From Candidatus Omnitrophota bacterium (lineage in GTDB: Bacteria > Omnitrophota > Gorgyraeia > Zapsychrales > Fredricksoniimonadaceae): a stretch of 64,000 nucleotides of DNA. A program made the position numbers and the translations under genes. Numbering within the stretch: the first letter of the stretch is position 1; each line of letters starts with the position of its first letter. The notes under the pieces are model-generated. The model made no database searches. It was not told the origin of the DNA and worked only from the letters and a program-made list of their open reading frames with translations. The stretch is taken from NCBI GenBank assembly GCA_015233675.1, contig JADFXH010000001.1:140563-204562 (forward strand). Reading direction: 5' to 3'. Positions 2,296-49,482 of this stretch are shown here, piece after piece.

Positions 2296-2296
2296 A

Positions 2297-2467: not shown

Positions 2468-2498
2468 TATACGCAATCTCTAAGAAACACTTGCCGCA

Positions 2499-4454: not shown

Positions 4455-4479
4455 ATTTTTATAGGGGCCCTGACCCTGG

Positions 4480-4680: not shown

Positions 4681-4693
4681 AACCCTGGCCCTA

Positions 4694-5895: not shown

Positions 5896-6005
5896 ATATA
5901 ATATTCTATCTTGGATTTTTAATTATAGGTTCTCCTCCGGTAAGCGTCAATGAAATAAAGGACTTAAGTTTGACAAGGCCCTGCCTTTATGTTACAAAAT
6001 CATGG

Positions 6006-8255
6006 ATGAACCTTAAAGAACTTCTAACAAAGCACTCTTTCCCTCAACCAGTCATCGATGTCCTGACCGAATCCGGCATTACTACCCTGCACCCACCCCA
6101 GGCTGAAGCCATCCGTAAAGGAGTATTAGATAAAAAAAACGTGGTCATGGCCGTGCCTACAGCTGCCGGTAAAACCCTGGTCGCCGAGCTGTGCATGCTT
6201 AAATCCATCCTCCAAGAAGGGGGCAAAGCTTTGTACATCGTTCCGCTAAAAGCCCTGGCCAGCGAAAAATACCACGACTTTAAGAAAAAATACGAATCTT
6301 TAGGGATCAAAATCGGCATTGCCACCGGGGACCTGGATTCGCCCGGAAAATATCTTGACCGCTATCAAATATTGATCGCAACCGCTGAGAAAGTCGATTC
6401 CATCCTGCGTTCAAAAGCCGGATGGCTGATCAACTCCCTTACGGTCATTGTCCTGGATGAAATTCATTTTATCAACGATGAAGGCCGGGGGCCGACACTC
6501 GAAATCTTAACCGCCCGCATCAAACAATTAAAACCGGGTATTCAAATTTTAGCCCTTAGCGCCACTATCAGTAACGCACAGGAAATTGCCGGCTGGCTGG
6601 ATGCCAATCTTGCCCTTAGCCATTGGCGGCCCATCCCCCTTAAAGAAGGGGTTTATTTTAATGAGAAAATCATGTTTAACAACGATTCCATCCGCTTAGT
6701 TAAAGAGGATGCAGACGTAGACCTAAACAAACTCACGATGGACACTCTTCGCGGCGGCGGGCAGGTCTTGGTCTTTGTCAATTCCAGGCGCAGTGCCCAA
6801 GCCGCGGCACGTGAATTATGCCCCTCTGTCATAACCATCCTTAAAAGTGAAGAACAAAAAATACTCAATGATTTGGCCAACGAGATAAGCGAAGACCATT
6901 CTGCCACCAAAGTTTGCAAAAAATTAGGGGAAATCGTCAAAAACGGCTGCGCTTTTCACCATGCGGGGCTCACCCCCAAACAACGCCATTTAATCGAAGA
7001 CCATTTTAAAAGAAACATCATTAAGGTCATCTGTTCAACGCCAACTCTTGCCGCCGGCGTCAATCTTCCAGCCCGCCGGGCCATCATCCGCGACTGCAAA
7101 CGTTATGCCAGCGGTCTGGGATCAGTGTATATTTCTACCTCCGAATACAAGCAGTGCGCCGGCCGGGCCGGCCGCCCTCAATACGATGATTACGGAGAAG
7201 CCGTCCTGATGGCTAAATCCCTTTCAGAACAAAATACTTTGTTTGAAAAATTTATTTTAGCCAAACCGGAACCTGTGACTTCCAAACTGGGCTCTGAAGC
7301 GGCCCTTCGCATCCATATCCTGTCTTCCATCGCCGCGGGTTATGTGCACGATATCACCAGCATGTTCGATTTTCTTAATCATACCTTCCTTTCTTACCAG
7401 CGCCAAGGGATTGATCTGGTTAGCTTAGTCGGAAATATTTTTGAATATCTGCATAAAAATGGGTTTATCGACAAAAGCGGCTTTAAATATTTCACCACTC
7501 CTTTTGGCAACACCACCAGCCGCCTTTACATTGACCCCATGACCAGCCTTATCTTACGCGAAGGCCTGACCAAAATCCATGAGGGTAAATCATTTTCCAC
7601 CTACGGCCTTTTGCATATGCTGACCTGCTGTCCCGACAGTGAATTGTTAAATGTAGGCAAAAGCGATTACGAAGAATTGGAGAATTTAAGCCAAAAACTC
7701 GAAGACGAATTAATTATAACTCCCGACGGCCTGTCCATGCTGCAGGATGTCTACACCTATTACGCTACGCTCAAAACCATGTGGCTGTGGTCACGCTGGA
7801 TCGACGAAGACAAAGAAGAATCCATGTGCGATGATTTCAACGTAGGACCGGGGGATATTTACCGCCATGTGGAATCCGCCGGGTGGCTGCTGCACGCCGC
7901 GGGCATGATCGCCCAACTTCTCCACTATAAAAAAATGACCTTTGATTTGGAAGCCCTGCGCTTGCGCGTACGCTACGGGATCAAAGAAGAACTGCTGGAA
8001 TTAGCCGCCCTGGAAGGTGTGGGGCGCATCCGGGCGCGCATACTCTTTAAACATGGCTATCACACGTTGGCGGATTTAAAACCAGCCACCGCTGATCATT
8101 TAGCTTCCATCAAAACTATCGGCAAATCCCTTGCCCAAAGCATCGTCCAACAACTACATGCCCCCCTCACCAAACGCTTTGCCACTAAAAAATATTCCCC
8201 CATGGAGCCGGATACCCAGCCCGTTGCCGAAATCAACGAAGTCTGGACGGATTAA
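6006..8255 (+). CDS. Hel308/Hjm-type (Ski2-like) superfamily 2 DNA helicase
   Basis: SF2 motifs present: LHPPQAEAI (Q-motif region), AVPTAAGKT (Walker A), DEIH, SAT, and HHAGL...QCAGRAGR. These are followed by WH/ratchet-length sequence and a C-terminal helix-hairpin-helix (LAALEGVGRIRARILFKHGYHTLADL). The start is placed at ATG 6006; the track uses TTG 5970. Confidence 0.8.
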   Translation: MNLKELLTKHSFPQPVIDVLTESGITTLHPPQAEAIRKGVLDKKNVVMAVPTAAGKTLVAELCMLKSILQEGGKALYIVPLKALASEKYHDFKKKYESLGIKIGIATGDLDSPGKYLDRYQILIATAEKVDSILRSKAGWLINSLTVIVLDEIHFINDEGRGPTLEILTARIKQLKPGIQILALSATISNAQEIAGWLDANLALSHWRPIPLKEGVYFNEKIMFNNDSIRLVKEDADVDLNKLTMDTLRGGGQVLVFVNSRRSAQAAARELCPSVITILKSEEQKILNDLANEISEDHSATKVCKKLGEIVKNGCAFHHAGLTPKQRHLIEDHFKRNIIKVICSTPTLAAGVNLPARRAIIRDCKRYASGLGSVYISTSEYKQCAGRAGRPQYDDYGEAVLMAKSLSEQNTLFEKFILAKPEPVTSKLGSEAALRIHILSSIAAGYVHDITSMFDFLNHTFLSYQRQGIDLVSLVGNIFEYLHKNGFIDKSGFKYFTTPFGNTTSRLYIDPMTSLILREGLTKIHEGKSFSTYGLLHMLTCCPDSELLNVGKSDYEELENLSQKLEDELIITPDGLSMLQDVYTYYATLKTMWLWSRWIDEDKEESMCDDFNVGPGDIYRHVESAGWLLHAAGMIAQLLHYKKMTFDLEALRLRVRYGIKEELLELAALEGVGRIRARILFKHGYHTLADLKPATADHLASIKTIGKSLAQSIVQQLHAPLTKRFATKKYSPMEPDTQPVAEINEVWTD

Positions 8256-28249: not shown

Positions 28250-31200
28250 CTAACCATACACCTGTGAATGTCCGGTTTGAACCACACCTAAGAAATCCTT
28301 TAAATTCATCATCGGCTGGATATTGACAATCACCGGCACAAAGCCCGGGGCATTTTGGAGTTTTTGGAGCATGGCAGGGTCAATGCGAAATTTAATCCCT
28401 TCATTAGAATTTTGAGTCTGCAAATTCATATTAGCAGGAGTTAAATCAATACCCCCTTTCTGAAAAACATTCATCGCCTTATCATTCTTTTCGAAAGCAT
28501 CCTCACCTTTTATCTTATCCAAAATTTGCTTAGCACTGTTTGGATTATCTAAAATTATATAAACAAAACCGATCGCTTTAGAAATAATATCAACATCCAA
28601 CGAATTTTTTTCTCCTTCATTCCGGCTTTCCCTTACTAAAAAAAATCTAATCCCTTGATCAACTAAATTATAATCATGATAGGATTTATCAAAAATTTCA
28701 TTTGTATATTGGACTAACCTTCTTAAGATTTTCTCCCAACTTAACTTTTTTTCTCTCATTTTAATTAACAATGTTATTGCATTTTCTTTCGGATTTTTTG
28801 TCGGATCCATCTTGCCCAAGGCTCCAGGCTTAAAGGATTTATTTATCATCGCTTTATCCGCCACACCCAATTGGGCGCTTTGCCCAACCATCCCCATTTC
28901 GCCCCTAGCCTTACCGACTTTTTCCCACATACTAGACAAGCCATCACCCCCGCTAGGGTCATAGTTTACTCTTTGAAAACCCTCAATCTCTGACGTTTGC
29001 TTGTCCCTTCCTCCTTCATTAAGTAACAAAATGCCTCCCGGGCTTAACTGTCGTAAAATTTCGTTGAAAAATAAAAAGGACACCTTTAAATGCAGGCCTC
29101 TAGGATAAAAAATATCAAATCCGGACCTTAATTCTTCTATTTGATCGGGATTACTCTTTGACGCATCAGCCCTATATAACACAATCTGCCTGTCTATACC
29201 CTCAAAATCAAATGTCAGCGTTATTTTTTCATGAGACCCAGCATTTTTTGTTCTTAAAACGGTCAAATTCCTTCCTCCTTGGGAAAATATCGTTGCCCTA
29301 TACCTATCCACGAAACTGTCTATATCCTCCCCCTCCAGCGGATCTATCCCTACAACTTGATGAATCCCTTTGATATTAAAAATAGGGTCTATGTCCGCCC
29401 CCATACCAGGATAATACAGCACCCCTGTTTTAGCTTTAAAAAAAACATTCAAATCTTGATAAAAATCCTTAATACTATCCCAATATTCATCGGGATAATA
29501 AGGATGGTTTATTAAAAATACTCTGTCGGCAAAGAATTTCATTAATGGTTCACTATTTAAATTCTCAGCTATTTTATACCCGTTCAAATAAAATCTTTCT
29601 ATGGCTTTTAATGTCACACAGCTTCCCATTAAAGTTGCGTCAAGAGCCATATTCTTCAGTACGAATTTCGCATTATAGAATCCAGCACTAGCTTTCATCG
29701 CCTGATCCTGCCGGGCCGATTGGGTGCTGTCCTCAATTTTTGAGGGTTGCCCCAATACCAACCCCCTGCTGGTCATACGATATATCCTTTGCCCAATGTT
29801 ATCTACGCCCTCCCGGGACGAATCGGGTAATCTGATAATTTCAGCCACATTCTGATAAAAATTAATTCTGATGTTGATACCATACGTTTCAAATAATAGC
29901 TTTTCAAAATTTTTTAATGCATCCACTGCTTCTTTATTTAAATCTTCTCTGCCTGGCTCAACTAACGCCTGGGCCACTTCATTGGGATCACCGGTCCCAT
30001 ACCCAACCTTGTCTTCAATAAAAAAATAAAAATTTTCTAATTCGGGCATGACTTTACGCAAAGTGTACACATCCACTAATAGCCGGCCTTTAGGCTTCAG
30101 GGCCTTAACAAATTTTGAAAAAAGTTTTGTGCTCTGTGGACTTTGGGCAAGAGCATAAGTTAAAGAGAAAGTGCCGATCATTAGGTCAAGTTGATCCTCA
30201 CCGTAATCCAGGCTTTTAAAATCTGCGGTCAACGGCTGAATATCCACATTGTTGGGAACGACCGTATTGTACCTTACTTTTACCGCGTCAAATTTCTGTT
30301 CATTCCTCAAAAATTTCTTCAAAGAACTCTGGACTCTATCAGAAATATGATATCTCCCCCATTCCCTTCTAAGAGTATAAGTTTCATTTTCCGATTCTCC
30401 TGTTGTCATTTTTAATATTTTCGATATCTCTCCTTCGTCTTTAGAAATAACAGCTAATTCGATCGGACGTTTACTATGCCCTGCGCTTAATACTGACATC
30501 ACCTCAAACAATTGGGGCGATTCAGAAACACCGTCCTTCTCATACATTCCAGGCCCCATCAAGGCAACTTTTAGACTATGCTCCGTATTGTCGTCGTTTG
30601 ACTTTAACAACAAATCATAAAGCGCAGGGTAACGAAGCGGCCATGTTATAGTACTACTAATCATTTCTCCTTTGAATGCAGCCAATACCGGGTTAATGGC
30701 CCTTAAATAATCTACATATTTTTCTGTGTGGATCGTAAAAATCTCATCGATGTCCCCTTCATTGCGAATAAATTCTGAATAGGTAATTAATCTTCTTAGT
30801 GAATCGTTGGCTTGTTCTTCATTGATTTTTCTGTTTTGCAAAGCTTGACGTATGCCTTCTTGAAAGAATTCCAAATCTTCATCCGGGAAAAGATAGGCCA
30901 AATGATGGTCTCCTTTGATACCCAAACGATAAGGAATGCGTTTAAGCCTATTAGGAGTATCTTTAATAGCATTTAAAATAAATTCCCCATAAGTTTTTCC
31001 TTCCGGCGCCTTAAAAGTGCGATCAAGCATTACCCAATATGGCCCATAAATGTCAGGCCGGGCAAAAGTTTTAATATACCTTTTATTACCAAATGGCCCG
31101 TAATACCTATCATCTATGGATAAACCTATAGCCGCTGAAGCAACCCCAAAGGCAAAGCACTTTAATACTGTGCCAATATATTTTGGTTCCGGATTTTCAA

Positions 31201-34200
31201 TAAAATTGTTCAGTGCGCTTAACAAGCCCTGTCCCGCAATCATTGATCCCAATATCATATTAGATTGGGCCATCAGAGACATCATCTGGGAAAAACTCAA
31301 AAAGGACTTTTTTATCTTTTGGTCTAATATAATATTCAGCATTGCTTTTTTCTTTGATTCCCTGTCCTTTTTAATCCAACTTTCTCCCAAATGTACCCCG
31401 ACCCCATGCCCCCAATAGCCCCTTTTTGCCGCCAATGCAATAATTTTTTCAGTGATATCGGACGAATTGATCAAGCCATTAAATTTCGATTCTAAAGGGT
31501 CCGATTTCTTGCCAGTCATAGCCTGATCAAACTGGGCCGGATCATAAAGCACAGATGGCACGGCCGTGGGGGGTATTTCTTTTCTCCAATCAATGAACTT
31601 ACTCTGGTCTACCTTTCCTAAAAGTATCTTAAATGCTGCCCCGCGTGTTCCATGCGAAAAAAACACACCTGTATCGCCATCTAATAACCGGTCCAAATCT
31701 TCCAGCTCCTTTTTTGACTGTTCTAAGAATCGGATAAAGTCATCCCCTCCGCCCACAGAAACAGCGGCATTATAACCCCGATAGGCCTGGCTTACCTTAA
31801 GGGCTAAAGGGCCCATTTTCTCTTCAATTATTTTATCCGATTTGTTCTCGAACTCCCCAAAGCTCATTTCAGCAAGCCCTTCCCGCGGCTCCCCTTCAAA
31901 ATCGAAATGCATGGCCTCCATAGCCGGTTGTGCCGTCTGAAAAGCTCTGAATAAAGGACTCCTGAAATAATGAATTGGTTTTTTCTCCTCTTTTAATATG
32001 CCTTGCAGTTTATCCACTACTGAGAGCGCCTGATTTTCACCATGGGTACTCAGCTGATTTAAAAACGGATCATCAACATTGCCTTGATATCGAGGCCGAT
32101 TTTGATCCCTTTTCCCTTCTTCAATTAAATGGGTATCCCCGTGACGAATAAAAATTATCTTAGATTTTAACCGCAGGGGCTTGAAATCTTTCCCATAATA
32201 AAGTTTTCCATTTCTCCATTCCAAACCTAATTCCTTTAATATTCCCGCTTGTTCTTCATCAGGGACAAACCGTGCCTGCTTTGGGTCCCAGGGTTTCTCG
32301 CTTACCTGTGCATTACTCATCGCCCAGTCCTGATCGGCCCGTTGGGAAGTGTACCAATTTTTACCTCCCCTCAAGGGTCCCAAAACAAATTCCCGGTGTG
32401 GCAATTGCTGACTATTGTTTAAAACATTTTCTCGAAATTTTAAGAATAATGCATCAACATCACTTAACCACTGCTTGTTAGAGTCATAATTTAAATAGGT
32501 TGGGGACCGAAACCCCATCACATCATTAATGGGCAAACCAAGCCTCTTAAAAGTTTCTTCCAGCACCTTAAAAGTTTGTTCAACTTGCTGAACATTAAGA
32601 TGATATTTAATAGGTTCGTCCAACCCCTTAATTGACCGCAAATCATCATGCTCTTTCTGAAAAAGCGAAAAGAAATCATAATCAATATTCACAAAAATCG
32701 GTCCGGGATATTCAGATAATTTGTATGGTTTTCCAAAAACATCAGCCTCAGCTTCATCCAGAGTAGACAATCTTGACGCATACTTACCTTTAATATCTTT
32801 GAATATATCCAGCTCACTGTTAAATAATATTCGATCCGGCTTAGGTTCAAACCAGCGCCTGCCATCATCTGGTTCCCCCAAAGGCTCTCCAAACAAAGAA
32901 AAAACTATTCTAGGGGCCTGTATTTTCCCTTCTTGATCAAATAAACCTCCTTTTGTCATAAATCCATCTGCAGGAATAACCGTACCCACTTTTACGGCAT
33001 TAATAGATTCAAGGGTAAAAGCCCAGCTAGCGTCCCTTTTGATTTCTCGAGCAGATAACCCCCCAATAGGTTTTATAGCGCTCTCTATAGCATTATACCT
33101 ATCATGATGCGGATCAACATTGATGACTAAAATTGGCCAACCGTGATCTAATCCGACCATACGGACAGTATGAACAATATTCAACATGTCCCCATGCTTG
33201 TTAGAAATGGGATATTCCACTGGCTTATCTGTAACCCATGATGGATTGCTGCTCAAAACTTTGTCTTGATGAATATGGGCTAGCGCTTGTTGATAGAGGG
33301 TGAAAAATTTAGTTGTTTTATTTAGTAATGAAGCCGCAGGGTTAGCTTGATCTATACGGCAATTCACAACTACCTTCGGAGAAGATTCTTTATCAAGCAT
33401 GGCAGCATCTGTTGTCACTCTTAATATTTCCTGCGGCCTTGAAGATGTTGACCGGTTAGAAAGAAGCGCCAAGTCCGTACCACCTGAAAAATATTTTCTT
33501 GGGACATTCTCTTGGGTTGTAGGATTAATTTCATCTTTTATATAGTTGTAAACGCCTTTTTTGAAGGCTTGAAGGTAGCGTTGGTAGATGAGTTGAACGT
33601 CACTGCTTTCAGGCGATTGGTTGTTTCCCTGGGGCGCTTTCGCATTCAAAACTACCTCGCTTGGCAACGTGCTTGGGGACACATTTTTTTGTTGTTCTTT
33701 ATTGAACATGTCCCCTGGTTGCCCTCCCCTGGTTGGCGGCGCTGGTATGACACTTTGATCATAGCCTACCCCAGCCACTTTATTTTTATCCGCGTACACT
33801 TGAGCCAAAATACTGTCTTTGATTTTCTTCTTGTACCATGTCGCCAATATTAACGAATTGTAGACTTGCCGCAGTTGGGCGAAATTTCTGCCTTCATTGA
33901 CTTCTTTGATTAATTCGGGGATGACGATCTCGTGGACGATTTGGGAGGCTAAAGAGTTGGTGTCTTTGTTTGGCAGGCGGCGTTCGGAGATGTGTCCTCT
34001 GGTTGGCTCTTGATTTTTTGACAAAGCTAAATAATCTTGCTCAAGCATTACCTTAAGTTTTGACTCAACTACATACGCCGTCCCTGCCTGAGCATTCTCA
34101 TATACCATTGCCTTTTCGGGAACTATCCACACTTTATTAAAAGTATTTACCGGAATGTTGGTGGAGCCAAATATCTTCGCAGTTTTTTCATAGATACGCT

Positions 34201-34699
34201 TCCAAAACTTTTTACCGATTTCACCTTCCGGATAAACCAAACTGGCGGTGATCTGTTTGAGCATGTAGTCTTCCGCCAAAAGGTCCCTGCCCATTTCCGT
34301 TAAGCCAAAACTTTGTGGAATAATGCGGTCTTTTTCGTAAGGTGAAAGATTGACCCACAGGTCTTTTTCAGGGATGGTTAAGGAGGCAAGGAAATATTTG
34401 ATGAGTTTGGTGGCTCCTTGTTTAAGATCTCGCCCTCCCCTTGCCCCTCCCTCCAAGGGAGAGGAATTCTTACCAACAAAGACAGAAGAATCACCTTGAT
34501 CTAAAATAAAATCAAGTCGAAAAGGATTTTCAGTATGGACTTTGAGGCCTTTTAATATGGGGGAGTTATATTCGGGGCTTAAACCGACACGCACACCGGG
34601 TGTAGGCAAACGGAATTCCTGGGCATAAACGGGAGACGTCCCATATACACTTGTTATTAAAAAACACAAGATAGTAAGGATTAAAATTAACTTTTTCAT
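28250..34699 (-). CDS. Giant secreted multidomain protein (2149 aa from ATG 34699) with histidine-phosphatase and two methyltransferase-like regions
   Basis: All residue numbers below use track-ORF numbering. The signal peptide is MKKLILILTILCFLITSVYGTSPVYA. Residues ~853-1037 carry IIFIRHGD, SPLFRAFQTA and FFSHG, matching the histidine phosphatase superfamily. Residues ~1384-1555 (ALMGPGM...LKPKGRLLV) and ~1766-1905 (YYPGMGAD...LSPGGILLL) look like Rossmann-type methyltransferases. Residues ~510-690 carry INVDPHHD and VNIDYDFF, which are arginase/deacetylase-like metal motifs. Confidence 0.75.
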   Translation of the reverse strand: MKKLILILTILCFLITSVYGTSPVYAQEFRLPTPGVRVGLSPEYNSPILKGLKVHTENPFRLDFILDQGDSSVFVGKNSSPLEGGARGGRDLKQGATKLIKYFLASLTIPEKDLWVNLSPYEKDRIIPQSFGLTEMGRDLLAEDYMLKQITASLVYPEGEIGKKFWKRIYEKTAKIFGSTNIPVNTFNKVWIVPEKAMVYENAQAGTAYVVESKLKVMLEQDYLALSKNQEPTRGHISERRLPNKDTNSLASQIVHEIVIPELIKEVNEGRNFAQLRQVYNSLILATWYKKKIKDSILAQVYADKNKVAGVGYDQSVIPAPPTRGGQPGDMFNKEQQKNVSPSTLPSEVVLNAKAPQGNNQSPESSDVQLIYQRYLQAFKKGVYNYIKDEINPTTQENVPRKYFSGGTDLALLSNRSTSSRPQEILRVTTDAAMLDKESSPKVVVNCRIDQANPAASLLNKTTKFFTLYQQALAHIHQDKVLSSNPSWVTDKPVEYPISNKHGDMLNIVHTVRMVGLDHGWPILVINVDPHHDRYNAIESAIKPIGGLSAREIKRDASWAFTLESINAVKVGTVIPADGFMTKGGLFDQEGKIQAPRIVFSLFGEPLGEPDDGRRWFEPKPDRILFNSELDIFKDIKGKYASRLSTLDEAEADVFGKPYKLSEYPGPIFVNIDYDFFSLFQKEHDDLRSIKGLDEPIKYHLNVQQVEQTFKVLEETFKRLGLPINDVMGFRSPTYLNYDSNKQWLSDVDALFLKFRENVLNNSQQLPHREFVLGPLRGGKNWYTSQRADQDWAMSNAQVSEKPWDPKQARFVPDEEQAGILKELGLEWRNGKLYYGKDFKPLRLKSKIIFIRHGDTHLIEEGKRDQNRPRYQGNVDDPFLNQLSTHGENQALSVVDKLQGILKEEKKPIHYFRSPLFRAFQTAQPAMEAMHFDFEGEPREGLAEMSFGEFENKSDKIIEEKMGPLALKVSQAYRGYNAAVSVGGGDDFIRFLEQSKKELEDLDRLLDGDTGVFFSHGTRGAAFKILLGKVDQSKFIDWRKEIPPTAVPSVLYDPAQFDQAMTGKKSDPLESKFNGLINSSDITEKIIALAAKRGYWGHGVGVHLGESWIKKDRESKKKAMLNIILDQKIKKSFLSFSQMMSLMAQSNMILGSMIAGQGLLSALNNFIENPEPKYIGTVLKCFAFGVASAAIGLSIDDRYYGPFGNKRYIKTFARPDIYGPYWVMLDRTFKAPEGKTYGEFILNAIKDTPNRLKRIPYRLGIKGDHHLAYLFPDEDLEFFQEGIRQALQNRKINEEQANDSLRRLITYSEFIRNEGDIDEIFTIHTEKYVDYLRAINPVLAAFKGEMISSTITWPLRYPALYDLLLKSNDDNTEHSLKVALMGPGMYEKDGVSESPQLFEVMSVLSAGHSKRPIELAVISKDEGEISKILKMTTGESENETYTLRREWGRYHISDRVQSSLKKFLRNEQKFDAVKVRYNTVVPNNVDIQPLTADFKSLDYGEDQLDLMIGTFSLTYALAQSPQSTKLFSKFVKALKPKGRLLVDVYTLRKVMPELENFYFFIEDKVGYGTGDPNEVAQALVEPGREDLNKEAVDALKNFEKLLFETYGINIRINFYQNVAEIIRLPDSSREGVDNIGQRIYRMTSRGLVLGQPSKIEDSTQSARQDQAMKASAGFYNAKFVLKNMALDATLMGSCVTLKAIERFYLNGYKIAENLNSEPLMKFFADRVFLINHPYYPDEYWDSIKDFYQDLNVFFKAKTGVLYYPGMGADIDPIFNIKGIHQVVGIDPLEGEDIDSFVDRYRATIFSQGGRNLTVLRTKNAGSHEKITLTFDFEGIDRQIVLYRADASKSNPDQIEELRSGFDIFYPRGLHLKVSFLFFNEILRQLSPGGILLLNEGGRDKQTSEIEGFQRVNYDPSGGDGLSSMWEKVGKARGEMGMVGQSAQLGVADKAMINKSFKPGALGKMDPTKNPKENAITLLIKMREKKLSWEKILRRLVQYTNEIFDKSYHDYNLVDQGIRFFLVRESRNEGEKNSLDVDIISKAIGFVYIILDNPNSAKQILDKIKGEDAFEKNDKAMNVFQKGGIDLTPANMNLQTQNSNEGIKFRIDPAMLQKLQNAPGFVPVIVNIQPMMNLKDFLGVVQTGHSQVYG

Positions 34700-34710
34700 T
34701 ATATTCTGGA

Positions 34711-34719
34711 AGTATAACA
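34711..34719 (-). promoter_or_regulatory. Putative extended -10 promoter (TGTTATACT) of the giant gene, implying a very short leader
   Basis: The reverse complement of 34711-34719 is TGTTATACT. The ATG at 34699 lies 11 nt downstream of the hexamer and there is no Shine-Dalgarno sequence. Confidence 0.35.
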
Positions 34720-34765
34720 CGTGTATTTATATACTGCCAATTCAAGGAAGGAAGTTGAAGGAAGT

Positions 34766-41045: not shown

Positions 41046-41410
41046 TTTGACAAGTCCACATAGCGCAACTGCAGCTCGTAAATGGAGCCGTTGAGCAAAT
41101 CATCTTCTTCTTTAGACAAATTGCCCTTGGTTTTATCACGCAAAATGACTAACGTATCGATCAAAAATTTGGCTTGCTTGAGATTTTTTTCAACCTGATT
41201 GGTCATGGGGTTGGGCATTTCCCCTAAAAAAATCATAGTTTGGAAACCCAAACTCGCAATATAATTAAAAAAATCCAATTGTGGTTCCGCGCCTGCCTGT
41301 GCGGCATCATCCGTTGAAGGTTTAGGTGAAGAGGTCAGAGGCTGACCGTCCGGGCCTAAAAGCCCTCCATCCTTCTCAACATTATCTCCAAAACGATTTT
41401 GCAAAGTCAT
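41042..41410 (-). CDS. DUF1844 domain protein
   Basis: FFNYIASLGFQTMIFLGEMPNPMTNQVEKNLKQAKFLIDTLVILRDKTKGNLSKEEDDLL matches the DUF1844 signature as I remember it. Confidence 0.7.
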   Translation of the reverse strand: MTLQNRFGDNVEKDGGLLGPDGQPLTSSPKPSTDDAAQAGAEPQLDFFNYIASLGFQTMIFLGEMPNPMTNQVEKNLKQAKFLIDTLVILRDKTKGNLSKEEDDLLNGSIYELQLRYVDLSK

Positions 41411-41457
41411 ATAAACCCTTCCTTTAATGTTATTTCTAAATAAAGCGCATTACATTA

Positions 41458-41739
41458 TCATTGGTTTTTAAAAAAGTCAACTTTTGCGTAAGTGGAGCTT
41501 AAGTGGAAAAGCTCTTTTGGGTAAAAAGAGCAGAGAAAGTTGTTGTACCAGCTTCTTGGCCTTCCCCAAATAAACCCGGAAGGAAATCTTGTCCTCATCA
41601 GGACGCCAGCCTTGCTCCTGAAATATTCCGCTAAAACATTAGCAGTGACAATTTGCCCCGCCTCATTCAATTTGTCGTCAACAATTTCAATAGGCGGCAG
41701 GTACTTGGGGTCTAATAATGCGTTCTGCAGGTCTTTCAT
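41458..41739 (-). CDS. Hypothetical protein (93 aa)
   Basis: This is ORF evidence only. It is the first gene of the accessory region and I recognise no motif. Confidence 0.35.
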   Translation of the reverse strand: MKDLQNALLDPKYLPPIEIVDDKLNEAGQIVTANVLAEYFRSKAGVLMRTRFPSGFIWGRPRSWYNNFLCSFYPKELFHLSSTYAKVDFFKNQ

Positions 41740-41856
41740 GCGGATGCCGTTCAGCCTATTGATAATAAAATGATCGTCGTCCTTTTGCCGAAGGCGGGTA
41801 GAAAAATCCTTAATTTTCTAGATAACTGACCGAATCATAAAGATGGGGTTTGTACC

Positions 41857-42222
41857 TTATGCTTTTATTATCTCACCTATCCGATTAGCCAAAGTTACCG
41901 CTAACCAACAGGAGCAGGCAGACAAAATCACTGCAATAATATTCCAAGATATCCTATCCAATTTACGTGATTTAAACAACGAAAACCCCTCAAGCTCATG
42001 TGTATTAAAAAGAGCAATAAAATAAGCCCACATGAAAGCATACGTTAGTGTCACTAATCCAGAAAGAAGCCCCGACTTGCTTTGTTTAGCAACATAATGT
42101 AATGTCCCAAGAATTAAAATCCAACCTAACCACTCAAACCATTTTGAGGTCAGTTTCAGATAAATGGCAAGCGCACGTTCAAAACCGCTCTCTGGATTCT
42201 TAACCTTAATGTCAAATTTCAT
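41857..42222 (-). CDS. Small integral membrane protein (immunity-like candidate)
   Basis: The 121-aa product has 3-4 hydrophobic helices (WLGWILILGTLHYV, LVTLTYAFMWAYFIALF, IIAVILSACSCWLAVTLA). Confidence 0.5.
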   Translation of the reverse strand: MKFDIKVKNPESGFERALAIYLKLTSKWFEWLGWILILGTLHYVAKQSKSGLLSGLVTLTYAFMWAYFIALFNTHELEGFSLFKSRKLDRISWNIIAVILSACSCWLAVTLANRIGEIIKA

Positions 42223-42275
42223 AATTCACACAGGCCGCTTCTACCGGGCAAGTCCATTGCCCCTATTTATCTCAA

Positions 42276-42590
42276 TTAATTATTTTCTACACTAATCACA
42301 GTAACTTCCGTAATTCCTCTTCCAAGCCCAAAATATTCTTTACACATTTTTTTCTCATGTGGCTCTAAATTAATTCCAACTCGTGATTCAGCAGATGAAG
42401 GCGCCCTTATCCTCCAACTACTTGAAATCAGAAGATTAGCTATTAAGGGCCTGTCCGTAGTATTTTGAGCTATACATGACACAAATGGCGAGTCATAACT
42501 CACTTGAGAAATAATCACTGGCCTTTTTTGAGGACTGCCTATTTCTCTTCTCTTGCGACCTACTGCTGTCCTTCCTTGCCCCAACGCCAC
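42276..42590 (-). CDS. Hypothetical protein (start uncertain; GTG in track)
   Basis: This is ORF evidence only, with no ATG near the 5' end. Confidence 0.3.
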   Translation of the reverse strand: MALGQGRTAVGRKRREIGSPQKRPVIISQVSYDSPFVSCIAQNTTDRPLIANLLISSSWRIRAPSSAESRVGINLEPHEKKMCKEYFGLGRGITEVTVISVENN

Positions 42591-42943
42591 TTTAATCCTC
42601 CCTCAACCTTTCCTTGAAAAAGTAAACAGAAAAGAACTGAAATGATTACCACGTCAATAATGAATCTTAAGATTGATTTTAAAGGAACGCCATTCGTATG
42701 TGACACAAGCCCATCAACAAAAGCAATTGTCAAAATTAACAGTATTAGAAAACAAAGAGCAACCCACCCTTGCCAAGCAGTTGGCACCCCAAAACCCCAG
42801 CCATAATCTTTAGGTTTAAACCAGCATTTATTCATGTGCTTGTCACTCTTTATGAAACGGAAAGTTAAATATTTTTGTACTGGCTCCTGGTATTCATTTT
42901 TTACTCGGTGGAAAAAGCCGATTATTTTCTTATCACAAATCAC
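42560..42943 (-). CDS. Small membrane protein (likely starts at ATG 42835: MNKCWFKPKDYGWGFGVPTAWQGW...)
   Basis: It has a YGWG...WQGW motif followed by two TM helices. Confidence 0.45.
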   Translation of the reverse strand: MICDKKIIGFFHRVKNEYQEPVQKYLTFRFIKSDKHMNKCWFKPKDYGWGFGVPTAWQGWVALCFLILLILTIAFVDGLVSHTNGVPLKSILRFIIDVVIISVLFCLLFQGKVEGGLKWRWGKEGQQ

Positions 42944-43391
42944 ATGAATAATGGGCTTCTTTTACTTCTATATCTTTTAAAATTTCATTCTTAAATGTTA
43001 ATTTCCCCCATTGGTAGTGCCATGACAATACTCCTCCATTACAACCAGAATATGTCCATACCTCGACACTTTGCTTATTGGTAATTTTGTTAGGATTACC
43101 GATTAAAACCTTGACCTGCTCCTTATTCATCCCCTTTGCAAAAATAAATTTTCCTAAATCATTTTTCACGTCCAAATTTAAATTTTGATTTTCGTTAATA
43201 AAATTATTAACTCTTTCTTTAATCAATACAACATTATTGTAATCCCACCATCCTGGCCCCTCATCCATATAAGACAACTGCACCGACGCAGGATGAGTTA
43301 TTATCGTTTGAGGCCCAAAAATTGACTCCTTTACACAAACACAACCACTCATTACAGCTATGCCTAAAATAAATATTATGAATTTTGTCAT
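42933..43391 (-). CDS. Putative lipoprotein of unknown function
   Basis: It has a signal and lipobox-like sequence (MTKFIIFILGIAVMSGC). The product is 152 aa. Confidence 0.5.
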   Translation of the reverse strand: MTKFIIFILGIAVMSGCVCVKESIFGPQTIITHPASVQLSYMDEGPGWWDYNNVVLIKERVNNFINENQNLNLDVKNDLGKFIFAKGMNKEQVKVLIGNPNKITNKQSVEVWTYSGCNGGVLSWHYQWGKLTFKNEILKDIEVKEAHYSCDL

Positions 43392-43420
43392 TTTAATTTA
43401 AAAACTGGCCCCTTCTTGAA

Positions 43421-44113
43421 TTATTTGACCTCAACACTTTTCTTCCATTCATCAGTTCCGTTCACAAAGGATATTAAAATATTGATAATTTCTTCGGCGT
43501 TAAAATTTCTTTTACTTTTATGACGCTCTGAACCTTCCTGACATTCAACACAAAAGCCATTTTCTTTAGAAAGCACAGTGATGTTAGGCACAATACTTGC
43601 TGGCGTAATCATTATGTACCCAGGAACAAAATTTTCGGAAGTATTCTTCGCAATAAACGACATTACAGCTTTTTCAATATCGTTTGGGTTTGGATTTTTA
43701 ACCATCTTTAATGTCTTACTATCTTTTAAGACCAAAGTGTTTTTCGCTGGAATCTTTTCCCCAATAGCATATTGAGAAGGGTCATTTTTATTTTCATCTA
43801 AATATATAAAATATCGTCCATAATCTTCTTTTTCGAATGAAAAATAATACCCCCCGTAATCTTTATCATTTAAGGTTTTTTTAGGAATAAATTCTGGTTC
43901 CAATTCCTTGTATTTTTCGGGAACAACACCAAAACCTAACGCTCCTTCAATTTGGTCATGTTCGGCAACCATAACAGTACCCTTTGGAATAATACAATCC
44001 TCGGAACCAGTATAAGGCTTTCCCCAAGATGTCATTGCATGTGTTGAAAAATCTTTAACAACTATGAATCGAGTACCCTTTTTGACATTTTCCATAATAT
44101 TAAAACCTTCCAT
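43421..44113 (-). CDS. Candidate immunity protein to the upstream Rhs C-terminal toxin module
   Basis: The 230-aa ORF has a start codon that overlaps the toxin-frame stop by 1 nt (TAATG). I recognise no motif. Confidence 0.45.
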   Translation of the reverse strand: MEGFNIMENVKKGTRFIVVKDFSTHAMTSWGKPYTGSEDCIIPKGTVMVAEHDQIEGALGFGVVPEKYKELEPEFIPKKTLNDKDYGGYYFSFEKEDYGRYFIYLDENKNDPSQYAIGEKIPAKNTLVLKDSKTLKMVKNPNPNDIEKAVMSFIAKNTSENFVPGYIMITPASIVPNITVLSKENGFCVECQEGSERHKSKRNFNAEEIINILISFVNGTDEWKKSVEVK

Positions 44114-45166
44114 TAAGTTTTACCAAATATAGGCGTATGATATGGGTCTGAATAAATTGGATAACCGGGTTCACCTGCTTTATAATAAGTATATTGTCCG
44201 CCTCCCCAATTATGCCAATTTCCACCTGATTGAACTTGATTTGGAACCCATGCATCAACATAATAATCACCAGTCGAACCTGTAACTCGAACATCGGCGG
44301 CTGTATTTAATGCTGTAGTAAAATATGCACCAGGGCCATACTCTCCACCAGACGAATTATAGACATAACCACTTCCTCTTATTCCCGCTTGACCAGCCTG
44401 ACTCGTATAATGTCTAAAATAATTCCCACTTCCATCATTTTCGTTATTTTGACCATTTGCGTTCCCTGCCCCCGTTCCTGCCATTGGTGACAAAGACGCA
44501 GAAGCCGAAGGAGGAACTATTTGATTCCATTCAGATTCCCCGATTCCATGAAATGAACTTTGCCAATGAGCGGCGTATGACCCTTCCATCAATCCGCCAG
44601 TTATGGCCCCTATACCACCGCCAATCGCTCCTGCCTCAAATGCCTGACCTATCCTTGCTCCAGAGCCTAAAGCTCTCCTCCAAATCCCGCTCCAAAGCCC
44701 CCTATGCCCATTTCTGTGGCACCAACTTCAAATCCTTCTCCGAAAGTTGCCTGGGCAAATGGCACTCCCCAGGCTCGTATTATATCTGCGCCCAAAGCTC
44801 CGCCTACATACCCCCACCTATCAGCCCTCCCGCAAGCGAACCTGCAAACCCTCCCCAATTTCCCGATATTCCAGCGTTAATTAACGAACTTACCCCATTA
44901 AACACCTGGAAGCCGACCATGAAGTTGCCACCTGTTAGAACAGTCGCAACTACACCAGCTATGGCTCCTACAATGTCACCAACAAATTTTTCAATCTTAT
45001 GCCAAAACTTCTTCCACCAACTATGCCCCGTAGGGTCAACTAAATTTACAGGGTTGTTGTTACAGTACGTGTAGCGATTGAGTGTCTGCGGATTACTTGG
45101 GGCCTGCACCACCGTATCAGGAGTAATGAATCGTCCTAACGACGGATTATAATACCTCGCCCCCAA
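44113..45166 (-). pseudogene. Orphan Rhs/YD-repeat core tail + C-terminal toxin cassette, N-terminally truncated and split by two -1 frameshifts
   Basis: GARYYNPSLGRFITPDTVV...NRYTYCNNNPVNLVDPTGH is the RHS repeat-associated core end. An in-frame TGA lies 6 codons upstream of it. The reading frame then passes through three frames (45166-44804, 44858-44667, 44727-44113), which carry Gly-zipper segments and a C-terminal domain with an FRHYTS...GPGAYFT motif. Confidence 0.7.
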
Positions 45167-45264
45167 TATCTATCATAGGTTCAATTTCAAAGAACGATAT
45201 ATTCCCTTAACGCATAATGTCTTACTGAATTTCAGCTCAAATCTTCTGCTATGCTGGAAGCCCC

Positions 45265-46095
45265 TTATTTCAGTGCCTTCTTGGCCTTTAAGGACAAGAA
45301 ATTTTCCTTTGATACAACCTTCTCGCCAATTTGACGTTCAATATCCCTTCTGGTTCTTCCAGCAACAGCACCACCGTCTTTAGCGTCCTTCTTTAGGGCT
45401 GGAACGCCTTGCGAATCACGGTTTGTTGTTATCCGTGTTGTGGCGGCTTCTCCCAATATAGTGATAATAAGTTCTAAATCGGTCATATGGTCACGCAGGT
45501 TTTCCCTTTTCAAACCTTTGTGTTTCTTATGTTCGTCTACTTTAAGGTCAAACGCTCCTTGCATTATCTCATTAGTCAATATGGCATAGTCTTGGTCAGT
45601 ACCAGCACCACGTCCGTCCCATTCGTCAGTTAACTTTTGCCTGACGGCTATCCCACGCAGCCGCTTTTCAATCCATTCCTTTGGATATCCCTTCTTTTCG
45701 TAAAGTTCTTTGGTTCTCTGCATACCCAGTTCTGGGTTTTCGATTTCGTCCAGACGCTCTTTGCCGATACGTGCGAGCCAACGCTTGAATGGTTCTGCCT
45801 TTGGTGACGGTATAGACTGAATAATACGGAAGACACCCTCGGCATTGGCACAGTCTGTCGCATATTTCTTGCCGTCAGCAGCCTCCAATTTCAGTTGTCG
45901 ACAAAATGTCGACAACTCAACTTTGGCTTCTTCCGTTTCCCGAACCTTCATTTTATACCAGTAATCCCGTGGGTTATCGCTATCAGTAAGGACAGCGACT
46001 ATATCAATAACTGAAAACCACCACTCGTCATTAACCAAGACTCGCCGGATATTTCTGCCTTTGAAAACTGCTATCTTCGTGATTTCTGCTGACAT
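45265..46095 (-). CDS. BRO-N domain protein (phage antirepressor / DinD-like)
   Basis: IAVFKGRNIRRVLVNDEWWFSVIDIVAVLTDSDNPRDYW matches the Bro-N pattern. The start is placed at ATG 46095, with GGGAGG 5 nt upstream. Confidence 0.7.
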   Translation of the reverse strand: MSAEITKIAVFKGRNIRRVLVNDEWWFSVIDIVAVLTDSDNPRDYWYKMKVRETEEAKVELSTFCRQLKLEAADGKKYATDCANAEGVFRIIQSIPSPKAEPFKRWLARIGKERLDEIENPELGMQRTKELYEKKGYPKEWIEKRLRGIAVRQKLTDEWDGRGAGTDQDYAILTNEIMQGAFDLKVDEHKKHKGLKRENLRDHMTDLELIITILGEAATTRITTNRDSQGVPALKKDAKDGGAVAGRTRRDIERQIGEKVVSKENFLSLKAKKALK

Positions 46096-46147
46096 TGCAA
46101 CCTCCCTGGAAGACTTTGTCAAATTTATGTCATTATACGCCAGGCGT

Positions 46148-46501
46148 CTATAAACGCAATTTCTTTATGGCTCCACGGGGGTGGTATTTGTGCACAGTCT
46201 TCTTTAGTTCTGACGGGCATACACGTGTGTAAACTTCAGTGGACTTGACGCGGGCGTGCCCCAGAAGGTTCTGGATAATAGCAATGTCAGCACCGTTTGC
46301 CAGCAAGTGTGTCGCAAATGAGTGCCTTAATGAATGGGGCGTTATTTCTTTGCCCAGGTTCATTCGCTTGGAATACACCCGCAGAATGTAGAGCACGGTT
46401 TCTCGTGCCATTGCCTTGCCGTATTGGCTCAAGAACAGTGCCGTCTCATTGTGCTGGGCACGGGCTAACTTGGGTCTGTATGAAGAAAGGTTACCAAGGA
46501 A
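46148..46501 (-). pseudogene. Tyrosine recombinase/integrase, C-terminal ~117-codon remnant
   Basis: Carries ALFLSQYGKAM...ITPHSLRHSFATHLLANGADIAIIQNLLGHARVKSTEVYTRV, which includes the catalytic H-x-x-R, H and Y region. The frame is closed by TAA at 46502-46504 and no N-terminal domains are present. Confidence 0.75.
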
Positions 46502-46741
46502 TTAACTGTGGCGTGTTAAGGGTTGTCTTTATGACGCGTCAGGTACTGGGAGAACGGCAAGGATAGGGGAATTAGTGTGCAAGCCCCACAGAGAACTCAA
46601 ACCCTAAATCCCCAGAGCATTGCCGGAAGGTCTTTGACGCTTGCTCGCGGGTTTGTTGTTTGCCCTGTCCCCATTTTGGGGACTGTCCCCTTCTCTGAGG
46701 CGGGAAGGTGTTTTGGGGTGGACGGACGACTGGATTTGCAA

Positions 46742-47053
46742 TTAAAACAAACCGCCTTTTATCCACCAGAGTAACAACAAAACCACACATACAGCTATTA
46801 GAATCATTATGAAGTCTGTCTTTTTGGAATCTTGCTTAAACTCCGCCTGATTCTTTAATTCAAAGTCTTTGATAATAGCAACAGCTTTATCAAAAGACTC
46901 CTCGGGAACATATATGCTTATCAAAGCAGTATCAGCAAAGCTATACAAGCTGGTATTTATGGGCTTTTCTATTTTAGCCATTATACCTTCGTCAGATAAT
47001 ATTTTATCATACTGCCAAGAGACTTGTTTATAAAATTTTCCCAGTAACTTCAT
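46742..47053 (-). CDS. Small protein, DUF2007-like N-terminal fold plus C-terminal TM helix
   Basis: The 103-aa product has a beta-alpha pattern (ALISIYVPEESFDKAVAIIKDFE) and a tail of ILIAVCVVLLLLWW. The assignment is weak. Confidence 0.4.
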   Translation of the reverse strand: MKLLGKFYKQVSWQYDKILSDEGIMAKIEKPINTSLYSFADTALISIYVPEESFDKAVAIIKDFELKNQAEFKQDSKKTDFIMILIAVCVVLLLLWWIKGGLF

Positions 47054-47810
47054 ATTTAAATTTGTCTGATTTTTTCTTTAAGCTATCAAGAAATTTTGAA
47101 TCATTTCCATTAAATTTATACCCTAACGACTTTGCTTTTTTTATATCCTCCCATGCTTCTTTGTACTGTTCCAATTTAAAATAATCAAATGCACGTTTAA
47201 TATAGGTTTTTGAATAACTTGGATTTATTTCAATCGTTCTAGAATAATCGCTAATAGATTGAATAAAATTTTCTTGCTGTTGGTAAATTACACCTCGATT
47301 ATAAAATCCTTCTGCTTGATTTGGATCAATCTGAATGGATTTAGTAAAATCAAGAATCGCCTCGTTAAATTTACCTTTTATGCCATACGCAATTCCCCTA
47401 TTGCGATATACCCCTGCATCATTAGGATTTATTCTTATGGCTTGGGTAAAGTCAGCTATTGAACGATTTAAATTGTTCCGTTTTCTGTAAAGCACCCCTC
47501 GATTAAAATAAGCAACTGCAAGTTCCGAATCATACTGAATGGCTTTATTAAAATCTGACAAAGATTGAGAAAGGTTTAAAATATTTAAATTAGCCAACCC
47601 ACGATTGTTATATGCTTTTGCATATTGGGGGTTTATTTTTATGGCTTTGGTATAGTCAGAAATAGCCTCAATATAATGCTTGCGTTTGGACTCAAGATTG
47701 CCCTTATTATAGTAATCATCCGCTGTCGAGGCACCATAAACAATAGTGGTGAAGCCAAAGACCAAAACTAAACAACTGTTTCTCAATTTATTTTTGAACT
47801 CAACGTGCAT
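47028..47810 (-). CDS. Secreted tetratricopeptide (TPR) repeat protein
   Basis: It has at least six 34-aa repeats (AI.DY/FT.AI.INP..A.AY.NRG.AY). A signal peptide starts at ATG 47810. Confidence 0.8.
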   Translation of the reverse strand: MHVEFKNKLRNSCLVLVFGFTTIVYGASTADDYYNKGNLESKRKHYIEAISDYTKAIKINPQYAKAYNNRGLANLNILNLSQSLSDFNKAIQYDSELAVAYFNRGVLYRKRNNLNRSIADFTQAIRINPNDAGVYRNRGIAYGIKGKFNEAILDFTKSIQIDPNQAEGFYNRGVIYQQQENFIQSISDYSRTIEINPSYSKTYIKRAFDYFKLEQYKEAWEDIKKAKSLGYKFNGNDSKFLDSLKKKSDKFKYEVTGKIL

Positions 47811-48143
47811 TTTGAATCCATTGCTGATCGCCACAACTCACACCTCCACCACACGCCCTTACTGTTCCTGCATAGTGCGTGACATTTGGGTCATATAAAA
47901 CATGCTGTCCTGCCGCCGCTAACAAGCTAGGCATGTAATTAGAAGCCCCTTCTTTAACGGCCAATGCATCAATCTTTTCGAATCCAATTTTATCTAATGC
48001 TGTTAGTAAATCATTTGCAGATTCAACTAACTCTTTGTGACAATTAATAACATTTACAATTAGTTTTGAATTTGCGAGTTGTTCATCTAACGAAGGGGCT
48101 CCCCAACATTTTGTTTAGCCATTTCCCCCCGACTCTCCTCTTA

Positions 48144-48356
48144 TCAATTATTATCATTGCATCTCACCTTATGAATAAGCTCTTTTACCTTTTCTGTTTT
48201 TTCCAAAACACCCGAGTTCTTTGTCCAATCTTTTGATCCAGCCCTCAACAAACCTTCAAGTGCATTAACAAGCTCATCTTGAAAATAACAACCCGCCCTA
48301 AAGCCTTCTTGAAACGCCTGATCAGCTGGACTTCCTTCTCTAAATCGTGATTTCAT
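48144..48356 (-). CDS. Hypothetical small protein (70 aa)
   Basis: This is ORF evidence only. Confidence 0.3.
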   Translation of the reverse strand: MKSRFREGSPADQAFQEGFRAGCYFQDELVNALEGLLRAGSKDWTKNSGVLEKTEKVKELIHKVRCNDNN

Positions 48357-48668
48357 CTAACCACCTGACCTTCCATTATTTAGTTGACAATTAGTTAAAA
48401 TGGACTTCCCAAAATCTTCATCGTATTTACGCCTAACGAAATATTTATTGTATTATAAACCTGAACTCCGAATTAGAACAGCTAAGAACCATGTTTTTTC
48501 ATCGGGATATTCTTGTTTCCGCTGCCATTATCCCTCTATATTCTTATCAACTAACCGCCTTTGCTTAATTTTATAAAAACCATGCCGGAGACTGCAATAA
48601 TTTTGCTTTTAGGCACACACCTCTATTGCTGACCTTTCATGCCTGAGCTAAAATGGACTTTTTCAGCA

Positions 48669-49165
48669 CTACGCAGATAACATTTTCATCTGACAATACT
48701 TGAACCGTTCAAACACTTCATGCGTCACATTTATGATCTTACAAGAATATTTCCTGCCACTCCTGACAACCTTCCCGCACACATTAATAAATTGATACCT
48801 CATGATCTTGATTGTCCACACGACAGCGTCGGTGCATAAATAAAACAACTTCATAGCCTGCGCCATGTTATACGCCAATACACCTAAAAAAATACCCGCG
48901 GTTCTTCTCAAAATCATGGCTTGGCGTATAATCGCATCCATATCCTGTCTTTAATTCCTTATGTATCTGCTCAATAGTCCCCATACGCCCATTATGCATC
49001 GTAAGCCATTCCATCGGCTCAATGTCTCGCTAACCATCTTCTTAAACCCAAAATGCCTCAAACTATCAACCATCCACCCAAGCCCAATTTTACCCGTTAT
49101 CGTTTCTTCGCTCTTTTTTCGCTCTTTTTTAACTCGACTTTGTACAAATTATTTGCTATTTTCAT
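48669..49165 (-). pseudogene. Remnant of an IS4/IS1380-like DDE transposase (internal deletion and frameshifts)
   Basis: Fragments in three frames are visible. First, a 22-aa N-terminal stub with GGAGG upstream. Second, HNGRMGTIEQIHKELKTGYG (the E-x6-K part of the DDE signature). Third, GIFLGVLAYNMAQAMKLF...VVRSGRKYSCKI, a C-terminal end typical of these transposases. Confidence 0.6.
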
Positions 49166-49482
49166 CTTGCCTCCGTTTTTCACCCTTTGGGTGAACGTAA
49201 ATGATGTTCTCGCAAACACCATTTTACGTCGGAGGCATCTTTTTTTATTCTCTTTTATTGCTTTTCTAATTCGAAGCTAGGGTATAAATGATTATTTAGG
49301 AAGAATTAGAATGTAAAAAGAAAAAGAAAATTTTTAACCACCACTAAAACTAAGAATTCCAAGCCATATATTGGAAAATACCCTAATGCTCTTGTTTTGC
49401 TCATTAGTAAATTCAATCGTGCCAGTTACAGTCAAAATTTTTATTTTATTAGTGAATCCAAATAGCCTGCTAAGCTATTCGA

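Follow-up and report, generated by a model that had tools for sequence, protein, structure and literature searches.

Orphan rhs-CT/rhsI modules, which pair a C-terminal toxin (CT) fragment with its immunity gene, have reportedly been found in Enterobacteria (E. coli, Salmonella, Dickeya; attributed to Poole et al. 2011 and Koskiniemi et al. 2014). They are regarded as displaced tips with the capacity to recombine with a main rhs gene. Here, we describe a locus of this general type in a 64,000-nt stretch of DNA (hereafter, the window, on which all window positions are numbered) from a metagenome-assembled genome (MAG) of Candidatus Omnitrophica, a representative of Omnitrophota, an uncultured phylum of bacteria with very small cells. 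The locus, annotated under the tags HQL12_00860 and HQL12_00865 on a contig of 321,724 bp, is most likely an orphan cassette of a Rhs C-terminal toxin and its immunity gene that has been stranded and is decaying.

Several characterized toxins provide points of reference for this cassette. Tre23, the Tox-ART-HYD1 (PF15633) tip of the Photorhabdus laumondii Rhs protein Plu0353, ADP-ribosylates 23S rRNA at helix 44, with His8 and Tyr33 being essential, and is counteracted by an immunity protein that acts by binding (PMC8661411). The HYD1 group was defined by the residues H, [RK], [FY] and [DE] on the ADP-ribosyltransferase (ART) fold (Zhang et al. 2012; PMC3482391). Translocation of another toxin, a type VI secretion system (T6SS) effector named Tde1, requires a glycine zipper (PMC10240207).

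Architecture of the Rhs remnant and its relatives

The Rhs C-terminal remnant occupies positions 44113-45166 of the minus strand, where it is distributed over three open reading frame (ORF) pieces, all on this strand: 44804-45166 (120 amino acids), 44667-44858 (63 amino acids) and 44113-44592 (159 amino acids). The first of these translates as (I)LGARYYNPSLGRFITPDTVVQAPSNPQTLNRYTYCNNNPVNLVDPTGH, followed by Gly-rich sequence, and includes NPVNLVDPTGH, a motif of the PxxxxDPxG[LH] type. A preliminary description of this DNA had recognized here the end of the RHS repeat-associated core, and the match to the NCBIfam model TIGR03696 (Rhs_assc_core) is indeed far beyond chance (56.7 bits, E = 2.5e-15, cutoff 32.5), although it covers only profile positions 34-76 of 76. 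That description also held the fragment to be an orphan, truncated at the 5' end and detached from any Rhs shell. This agrees with the presence of only the final 43 positions of the core model, with the stop codons located directly upstream, and with the tblastn search of the window using four full-length Rhs proteins of relatives, which detected no other Rhs or YD sequence (sole match, 44807-45166). The in-frame TGA that had been placed 6 codons upstream exists, but at a distance of two codons, a minor miscount. What is kept at the locus is the last ~47 core codons, a linker, the tip of the toxin and an immunity gene; neither the shell nor a credible start of translation is left.

As previously noticed, the coding signal shifts by -1 twice, that is, by two 1-nt deletions, and we found both shifts at the sites originally named. 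Insertion of one G at each site restores a single 352-codon ORF that is colinear, end to end, with intact single-frame homologues (P0001-P0007), and therefore the frameshifts are lesions of a conserved single-frame architecture. The two indels lie less than 140 nt apart, both inside the conserved linker and outside the toxin domain. Because they split the remainder of the gene into three ORF pieces, no deliverable toxin can be produced. We discounted a plus-strand ORF of 205 amino acids at 44457-45074, taking it to be an antisense by-product of Gly/Pro-rich sequence on the coding strand.

With the repaired protein as the query, 106 proteins were retrieved, most of them belonging to Omnitrophota and to uncultured groups close to it. 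The best matches (P0001-P0007, P0011 and P0019) run in one frame through the core end and a Gly-rich region of ~160 amino acids, and then diverge into differing C-terminal domains. When GTDB representative genomes were searched for the peptide QTLNRYTYCNNNPVNL with a degenerate DNA pattern, 12 loci were recovered, all in MAGs of Omnitrophota or "uncultured Planctomycetales" and none of them in the HQL12 assembly, and in 7 of the 12, the ORF extends upstream for 955 to 2335 or more residues. Full-length loci (L006-L009 and L011-L013; for example, L007 at 811-7368, minus strand, and L012 at 1039-7416, plus strand) share the core end, whereas other loci with this peptide are orphans, two in tandem in L005 and one each in L010 and L016. 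The preliminary description had made the orphan interpretation depend on a full-length Rhs/YD gene in this genome or its relatives; Omnitrophota relatives carry such genes, with the same core end.

The two full-length proteins that we analysed combine a signal-peptide-like N-terminus with SpvB, FG-GAP, TcdB_toxin_midN and RHS repeats, and neither PAAR nor VgrG was seen in the domain matches of the full-length Omnitrophota Rhs proteins. Judged by this domain content, the full-length proteins are predicted to be cocoons resembling TcB/TcC fusions, and look like Sec-exported proteins of that kind rather than T6SS cargo. The order of elements in the intact relatives is a Sec signal, SpvB, FG-GAP, TcdB_mid and RHS, the core end ...NNNPVNLxDPxGH, the linker of ~160 amino acids, a variable tip and, finally, an immunity gene. 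The tip of one of these relatives, L012, weakly matches TreTu_C.

In the window, the linker consists of 27% Gly and contains 20 overlapping GxxxG motifs in 161 amino acids, along with one strongly hydrophobic segment, which accords with the Gly-zipper-like segments noted at the outset. A Pfam scan gave no match between the window linker and the Gly-zipper families; in the sister protein L007, the tip scores 24.7 bits against Gly-zipper_YMGG, below the cutoff of 28.9. The linker is colinear with the corresponding region of the same single-frame proteins (P0001-P0007, P0011 and P0019), whose C-terminal domains differ (DUF7689 in P0004, for instance), and its end, EGSYxAGWQSxxHG, is conserved before many different tips. 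Because the same linker precedes unrelated C-terminal domains, the polymorphic boundary lies after it and not directly after DPxGH. The earlier assumption that the variable toxin starts immediately after DPxG[LH] thus does not hold in this lineage, where a conserved linker, placed between the cleavage motif of Rhs and the toxin, forms part of the unit that recombines. By analogy with known glycine zippers, this linker is a plausible candidate for a membrane-translocation module.

The toxin tip and the downstream gene

The tip carries the motifs FRHYTS, YGPGAYFT, YYVDAWVP and HTPIFG. The motifs of the FRHYTS, GPGAYFT and GDYYVD type that had first drawn attention to it are present and conserved in a small family. 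The GenBank protein HQL12_00865 (P0112; 158 amino acids, with its own ATG at 44589) is 100% identical to the tip ORF. The family is rare: when 1.84 billion representatives were searched exhaustively with phmmer, only 9 relatives were recovered. A single-protein metagenome scan with the tip found only the contig of L003, which was already known. Shared among the family members are [FY]RHYTS, YGPGVY[FL]T, [YF][VI]DVW[VI]P, YTY and HPPIFG. Several members follow Rhs core ends, and in one of these (P0118), the frame also encodes YD repeats.

Tox-ART-HYD1 is the sole Pfam match of the tip, at 13.8-16.5 bits (E = 0.095-0.013) against a cutoff of 25, and over profile positions 2-38 of 97. Among 8 tip-family members, 7 match the same domain, the best at E = 6.6e-4. 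A profile search of 5.8 billion proteins retrieved the tip family first and PF15633-annotated proteins next (E = 5e-4 to 9e-3), and hhalign aligned the family with HYD1 members at 98.9% probability (E = 3.3e-17) over 38 columns (HYTS...GPGVYLT), comprising the H..Y half only. The RHYTS and GPGAYFT motifs, with the HYD1-type His and aromatic residue, are conserved across the family, and the aligned stretch holds the His and Tyr equivalent to those that are essential in Tre23. In the other half, which does not align to HYD1 members, the family has an invariant Asp in Y[VI]D[VA]W, and by analogy only, the D in YVDAW would be the third catalytic residue; a clear equivalent of the conserved [RK] of HYD1 was not found in the family. 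The AlphaFold2 (AF2) model of the tip has a predicted local distance difference test score (pLDDT) of 85.5 and a predicted template modelling score (pTM) of 0.79. All 50 best PDB matches identified by Foldseek belong to the ART superfamily (tankyrase and other PARPs, Tpt1/KptA, TreTu), but they are not significant, with a best E of 0.077 and template modelling (TM) scores of 0.45-0.51. A sequence-profile search of the PDB with the tip family gave chance-level matches only. Both the sequence motifs and the model suggest that the tip is a divergent ART that falls in the H-Y-[ED] clade and is akin to HYD1, though outside it by Pfam's own threshold; as such, it appears to define a branch of HYD1-type ADP-ribosyltransferase toxins that is rare and divergent. 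The proposal of an ART-HYD1-like tip is, to that extent, borne out.

The gene downstream of the tip is intact. Its ORF spans 43421-44113, with the second ATG (44095) being the conserved start, and the GenBank protein HQL12_00860 (P0107) is 100% identical to its product. From its position and company, this gene is putatively the cognate immunity gene of the tip, as the tip and the 224-amino acid gene occur together in three independent contexts. Four close homologues of the product, with 57-78% identity, follow either the same tip (L001/L002) or a remnant of it (L003/L004). In L001/L002, a tip of 76% identity is fused directly, with no linker in between, to a truncated core end that differs from the one here (...PEIGRWLTQDPLGF...DPYGL) and is followed by a 62%-identical immunity copy; because yet another truncated core end follows the immunity gene, we consider L001/L002 to be an orphan array. 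In L003/L004, a 49-codon tip stub, cut by a Y1 transposase gene, precedes an intact immunity copy of 78% identity. On the L003 contig (134-658 and 683-829), only the last 49 tip codons have escaped replacement by the Y1 (IS200-type) transposase gene; here, independently, the toxin was lost while the immunity gene was retained. P0117, a more remote tip (38% identical), belongs to an array consisting of a main rhs gene, immunity, orphan, immunity, orphan and immunity, and the gene downstream of P0117 is unrelated to the one described here.

The immunity protein has no match to a Pfam or NCBIfam family and is not matched by Imm-My6CBD, the usual partner of HYD1; a new immunity family appears to accompany the tip. 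Its AF2 model is mediocre (pLDDT 75.5, pTM 0.49), and the Foldseek matches are not significant, with a partial, weak resemblance to the DddI immunity protein. Because this mediocre model retrieved neither a macrodomain nor an ARH fold with Foldseek, either of which would point to reversal by an enzyme, the protein would be expected to neutralize the tip by binding, as is the case for Tri23. The ratio of nonsynonymous to synonymous substitution rates (dN/dS) lies at 0.13-0.18 in the immunity gene and at 0.09-0.15 in the tip (0.145 in the comparison with L001). These values (0.09-0.18 for the two together) indicate that both have evolved as coding sequences and, hence, that either the lesions arose recently or the tip piece has kept some use.

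Some observations weigh against a decaying ART toxin/immunity cassette. Site 1 is a homopolymer, so that a sequencing error is conceivable there; given the low dN/dS of the tip, either the inactivation happened recently or this piece remains in use; and the role of the immunity gene is based on position and co-occurrence, its product having no recognized family or fold. The frame breaks might accordingly be sequencing or assembly errors in a locus that is actually uninterrupted, yet still 5'-truncated, and open to reactivation through recombination with a full-length rhs gene. The G5 run of site 1 sits inside a GGN-rich stretch, and the assembly containing L017 is likewise shifted at the GFGAGFGG|ALGSG spot, which may show that such GGN-rich runs are prone to indels. 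On this ENA contig, which encodes a closely related linker (6001-7700), the frame is shifted there and in several more places along the SpvB/TcdB/RHS gene, and the assembly is probably error-prone. Site 2, however, is not a homopolymer. The two indels fall within 140 nt of each other, yet all the remaining genes that we checked in the window have complete domain matches, and therefore frameshifts are not a general property of the assembly; pairs of overlapping ORFs in other parts of the window, considered as a possible sign of general frameshifting, turned out to be separate genes with complete domains that overlap only via upstream alternative starts. Moreover, the neighbourhood contains other decayed genes, such as a recombinase remnant. 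Altogether, assembly error appears quite unlikely. Error or slippage had been left open on account of the homopolymer at the first site; with only that site being homopolymeric, slippage cannot explain both breaks. Extremely improbable, in our estimate, is a functional role of the breaks, whether through programmed -1 ribosomal frameshifting or through slipped-strand phase variation at the G run that would switch expression of the cassette. Both shifts are in the -1 direction and the short G run of site 1 is followed by a stop two codons on, but the canonical X_XXY_YYZ heptamer is found at neither site, site 2 lacks a repeat run, the homologues are single-frame throughout so that the shifts are not conserved, and a read-through product, without a shell, a secretion domain or a convincing start, would still be undeliverable. 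There is also only a slight chance that the 158-amino acid HQL12_00865 protein, consisting of the tail of the linker and the tip, is expressed and forms, with the immunity gene, a stand-alone addiction pair resembling a toxin-antitoxin system. In its favour, this ORF is intact, has an ATG start and is annotated in GenBank, several tip-family members are short ORFs, dN/dS is low, and the toxin stop lies 17 nt upstream of the immunity start at 44095 (the alternative ATG, at 44113, shares 1 nt with the stop); but the ORF starts in the middle of the linker by an accident of the frameshift, the promoter scan is no better than chance expectation, and homologous tips are joined to Rhs core ends.

As for the activity of the tip, three further points count against an ADP-ribosyltransferase: the score is below the Pfam gathering cutoff, with only the first ~38 residues aligning to HYD1; every Foldseek match is weaker than E = 0.001; and the third catalytic residue is placed by analogy only. 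The tip might, then, adopt some other small toxin fold that shares just the short HYTS...GPGVY motif with HYD1, as would fit also the lack of a counterpart in HYD1 members to its C-terminal half (YVDVWVP...YTY...HPPIFG) and of anything relevant in the sequence-profile search of the PDB. We nevertheless regard this as unlikely, given that the aligned part contains the His and Tyr that are essential in Tre23, that HYD1-annotated proteins rank next after the family itself in the search of 5.8 billion proteins, and that all 50 top structural matches are to the ART superfamily, with the Rhs toxin TreTu among them.

Mobile-element neighbourhood

Table 1. Features of the orphan Rhs cassette and the adjacent genes (positions in the 64,000-nt window)
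Feature	Position	Strand	Basis
Putative cognate immunity gene, intact, 224 amino acids from conserved ATG 44095; HQL12_00860	43421..44095	-	co-occurrence with tip
Toxin tip, ~105 amino acids + stop, divergent, predicted Tox-ART-HYD1-like; part of HQL12_00865	44113..44424	-	family alignment, Pfam, hhalign, AF2
Low-complexity spacer between linker and toxin (IGESEWNQIVPPSASASLSPMAGTGAGNANGQNNENDGSG), not conserved in homologues	44425..44544	-	translation
Conserved glycine-zipper-like pre-toxin linker (HSWWKK...EGSYAAHWQSSFHG), 161 amino acids when repaired, over three frames	44545..45022	-	homologue alignment
Frameshift site 2, GGAGGAGA / GGAGGAGAGC, non-homopolymer; +1 G restores ...GFGAGFGGGALGSG...	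44672..44681	-	alignment to intact homologues
Frameshift site 1, G5 run (ATAGGTGGGGGTATG); +1 G restores ...GGLIGGGYVGGALG...	44811..44815	-	alignment to intact homologues
Rhs core-end remnant (LGARYYNPSLGRF...NNNPVNLVDPTGH) with DPxGH autoproteolysis-type motif	45023..45166	-	TIGR03696
5' truncation point: in-frame TGA (45173-45175) and TAG (45170-45172), two codons before G of GARYY	45170..45175	-	sequence read directly
Intact Bro-N domain gene, between recombinase remnant and Rhs remnant	45265..46122	-	Pfam Bro-N, E 1.8e-13
C-terminal remnant of Xer-type tyrosine recombinase, 94 amino acids	46148..46432	-	Pfam Phage_integrase, profile 99-168/172, E 1.3e-18

The preliminary interpretation is supported overall but lacked the conserved linker, the intact immunity gene, the recombinase remnant and the Bro-N gene (Table 1). 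The last two of these adjoin the cassette, and for this reason we propose that the cassette has travelled with mobile elements.

Near the Rhs core end of L010, there is a homologous recombinase (114-1024), near full-length but split over two frames, directly upstream of the truncated core. An identical 12-mer, ATCGTTCTTTGA, is present in both recombinase/Rhs junctions (45187-45198 of the window, minus strand, and 1037-1048 of L010), and the truncation point of the Rhs core is nearly the same, GARYYNPSLGRF in the window and NPSLGRF in L010. Because a homologous recombinase thus adjoins a similarly truncated Rhs core, with a shared 12-mer, in two genomes, it is conceivable, as a highly speculative idea to which we give little credence, that Xer-type recombinases move Omnitrophota orphan tips by site-specific cassette exchange, and not only by homologous recombination. 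Similarly speculative is the idea that the linker represents an undescribed pre-toxin translocation domain of TcB/TcC-like Rhs proteins.

The region at 41400-49400 is island-like, with the GC content dropping to 34-38% compared to ~44% elsewhere and with many small ORFs without family matches. Its ORFs encode, among others, a lipoprotein-like protein of 152 amino acids (42933-43391), membrane-like proteins (42560-42943 and 41857-42222) and a TPR protein (47028-47834). Rfam and tRNA scans detected no feature close to the locus, nor a tRNA beside the island that could serve as an attachment site; a repeat search of 40.5-49.5 kb returned short, chance-level matches only, with no flanking att-like repeats; and the promoter and terminator scan gave counts equal to the shuffled expectation. 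Elsewhere in the window, a giant minus-strand ORF of 2156 amino acids (28250-34720) has a His_Phos_1 histidine phosphatase as its sole recognized domain (residues 855-1063).

Proposed function and comparison with known systems

For the intact relatives, the following scheme can be envisaged. The YD cocoon would encapsulate the toxin, which would be released at DPxGH; the glycine-zipper linker would assist the passage of the tip through the membrane of the target cell, for which the glycine zipper of Tde1 is a precedent; and once in the cytoplasm of the target, the tip would ADP-ribosylate some essential component at the expense of NAD+, with a nucleic acid or the translation machinery being possible targets. 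The intact downstream gene would neutralize the tip by binding. At the locus described here, the cassette would have arrived, or been displaced, along with mobile-element genes. The decaying remnant is probably inactive as a weapon, and its present-day function likely resides mainly in the immunity gene, on which selection would still act because the product would protect against kin with active toxin. The locus probably persists through such protection against toxin-bearing neighbours, and it may also be retained as raw material for recombination.

Among the known systems, the enterobacterial orphan rhs-CT/rhsI modules share with this locus the 5'-truncated fragment in which only the core end remains and after which come a toxin tip and an immunity gene. 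In contrast to those orphans, the window contains no main rhs gene within 19 kb upstream or 44 kb downstream, the cassette is twice frameshifted, its host belongs to Omnitrophota, and the full-length relatives are of a type resembling TcB/TcC fusions (SpvB, FG-GAP, TcdB_mid) and not of the PAAR/T6SS type.

The tip itself is most readily compared with Tre23, another small C-terminal Rhs toxin with HYTS, a spacing of ~25-29 residues and GPGVY, and with a small immunity gene downstream. The differences are that the tip described here falls below the Pfam cutoff and has a different C-terminal half, that its immunity protein is unrelated to Imm-My6CBD, and that no T6SS context was seen at the locus, whereas Tre23 is delivered by a T6SS. 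TreTu, the ART tip of Salmonella Rhs1 (PDB 7zhl/7zhm; PMC9825190), is a minimal ART-fold Rhs tip of ~110 residues, the closest in size, and the only structural match that is covered over most of its own length (TM 0.48-0.49, root-mean-square deviation 3.1 A, 82 columns). The identity is, however, about 16%, the Foldseek E of 0.38 is not significant, and TreTu belongs to a different sequence family, the window tip having no match to TreTu_C.

With Tde1 of Agrobacterium (PMC10240207), the cassette has in common a GxxxG-rich segment located N-terminal to a toxin domain that acts in the cytoplasm, a comparison made by the GxxxG pattern and not by sequence homology. In contrast to Tde1, the linker here is far longer (~160 amino acids) and is a conserved module that follows the Rhs DPxGH. 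Taken together, these comparisons place the locus within a known type of element, the orphan Rhs-CT/immunity cassette, a pattern that is here extended to Omnitrophota; what is new is that a known toxin superfamily gains a divergent member, from a phylum that has been little studied.

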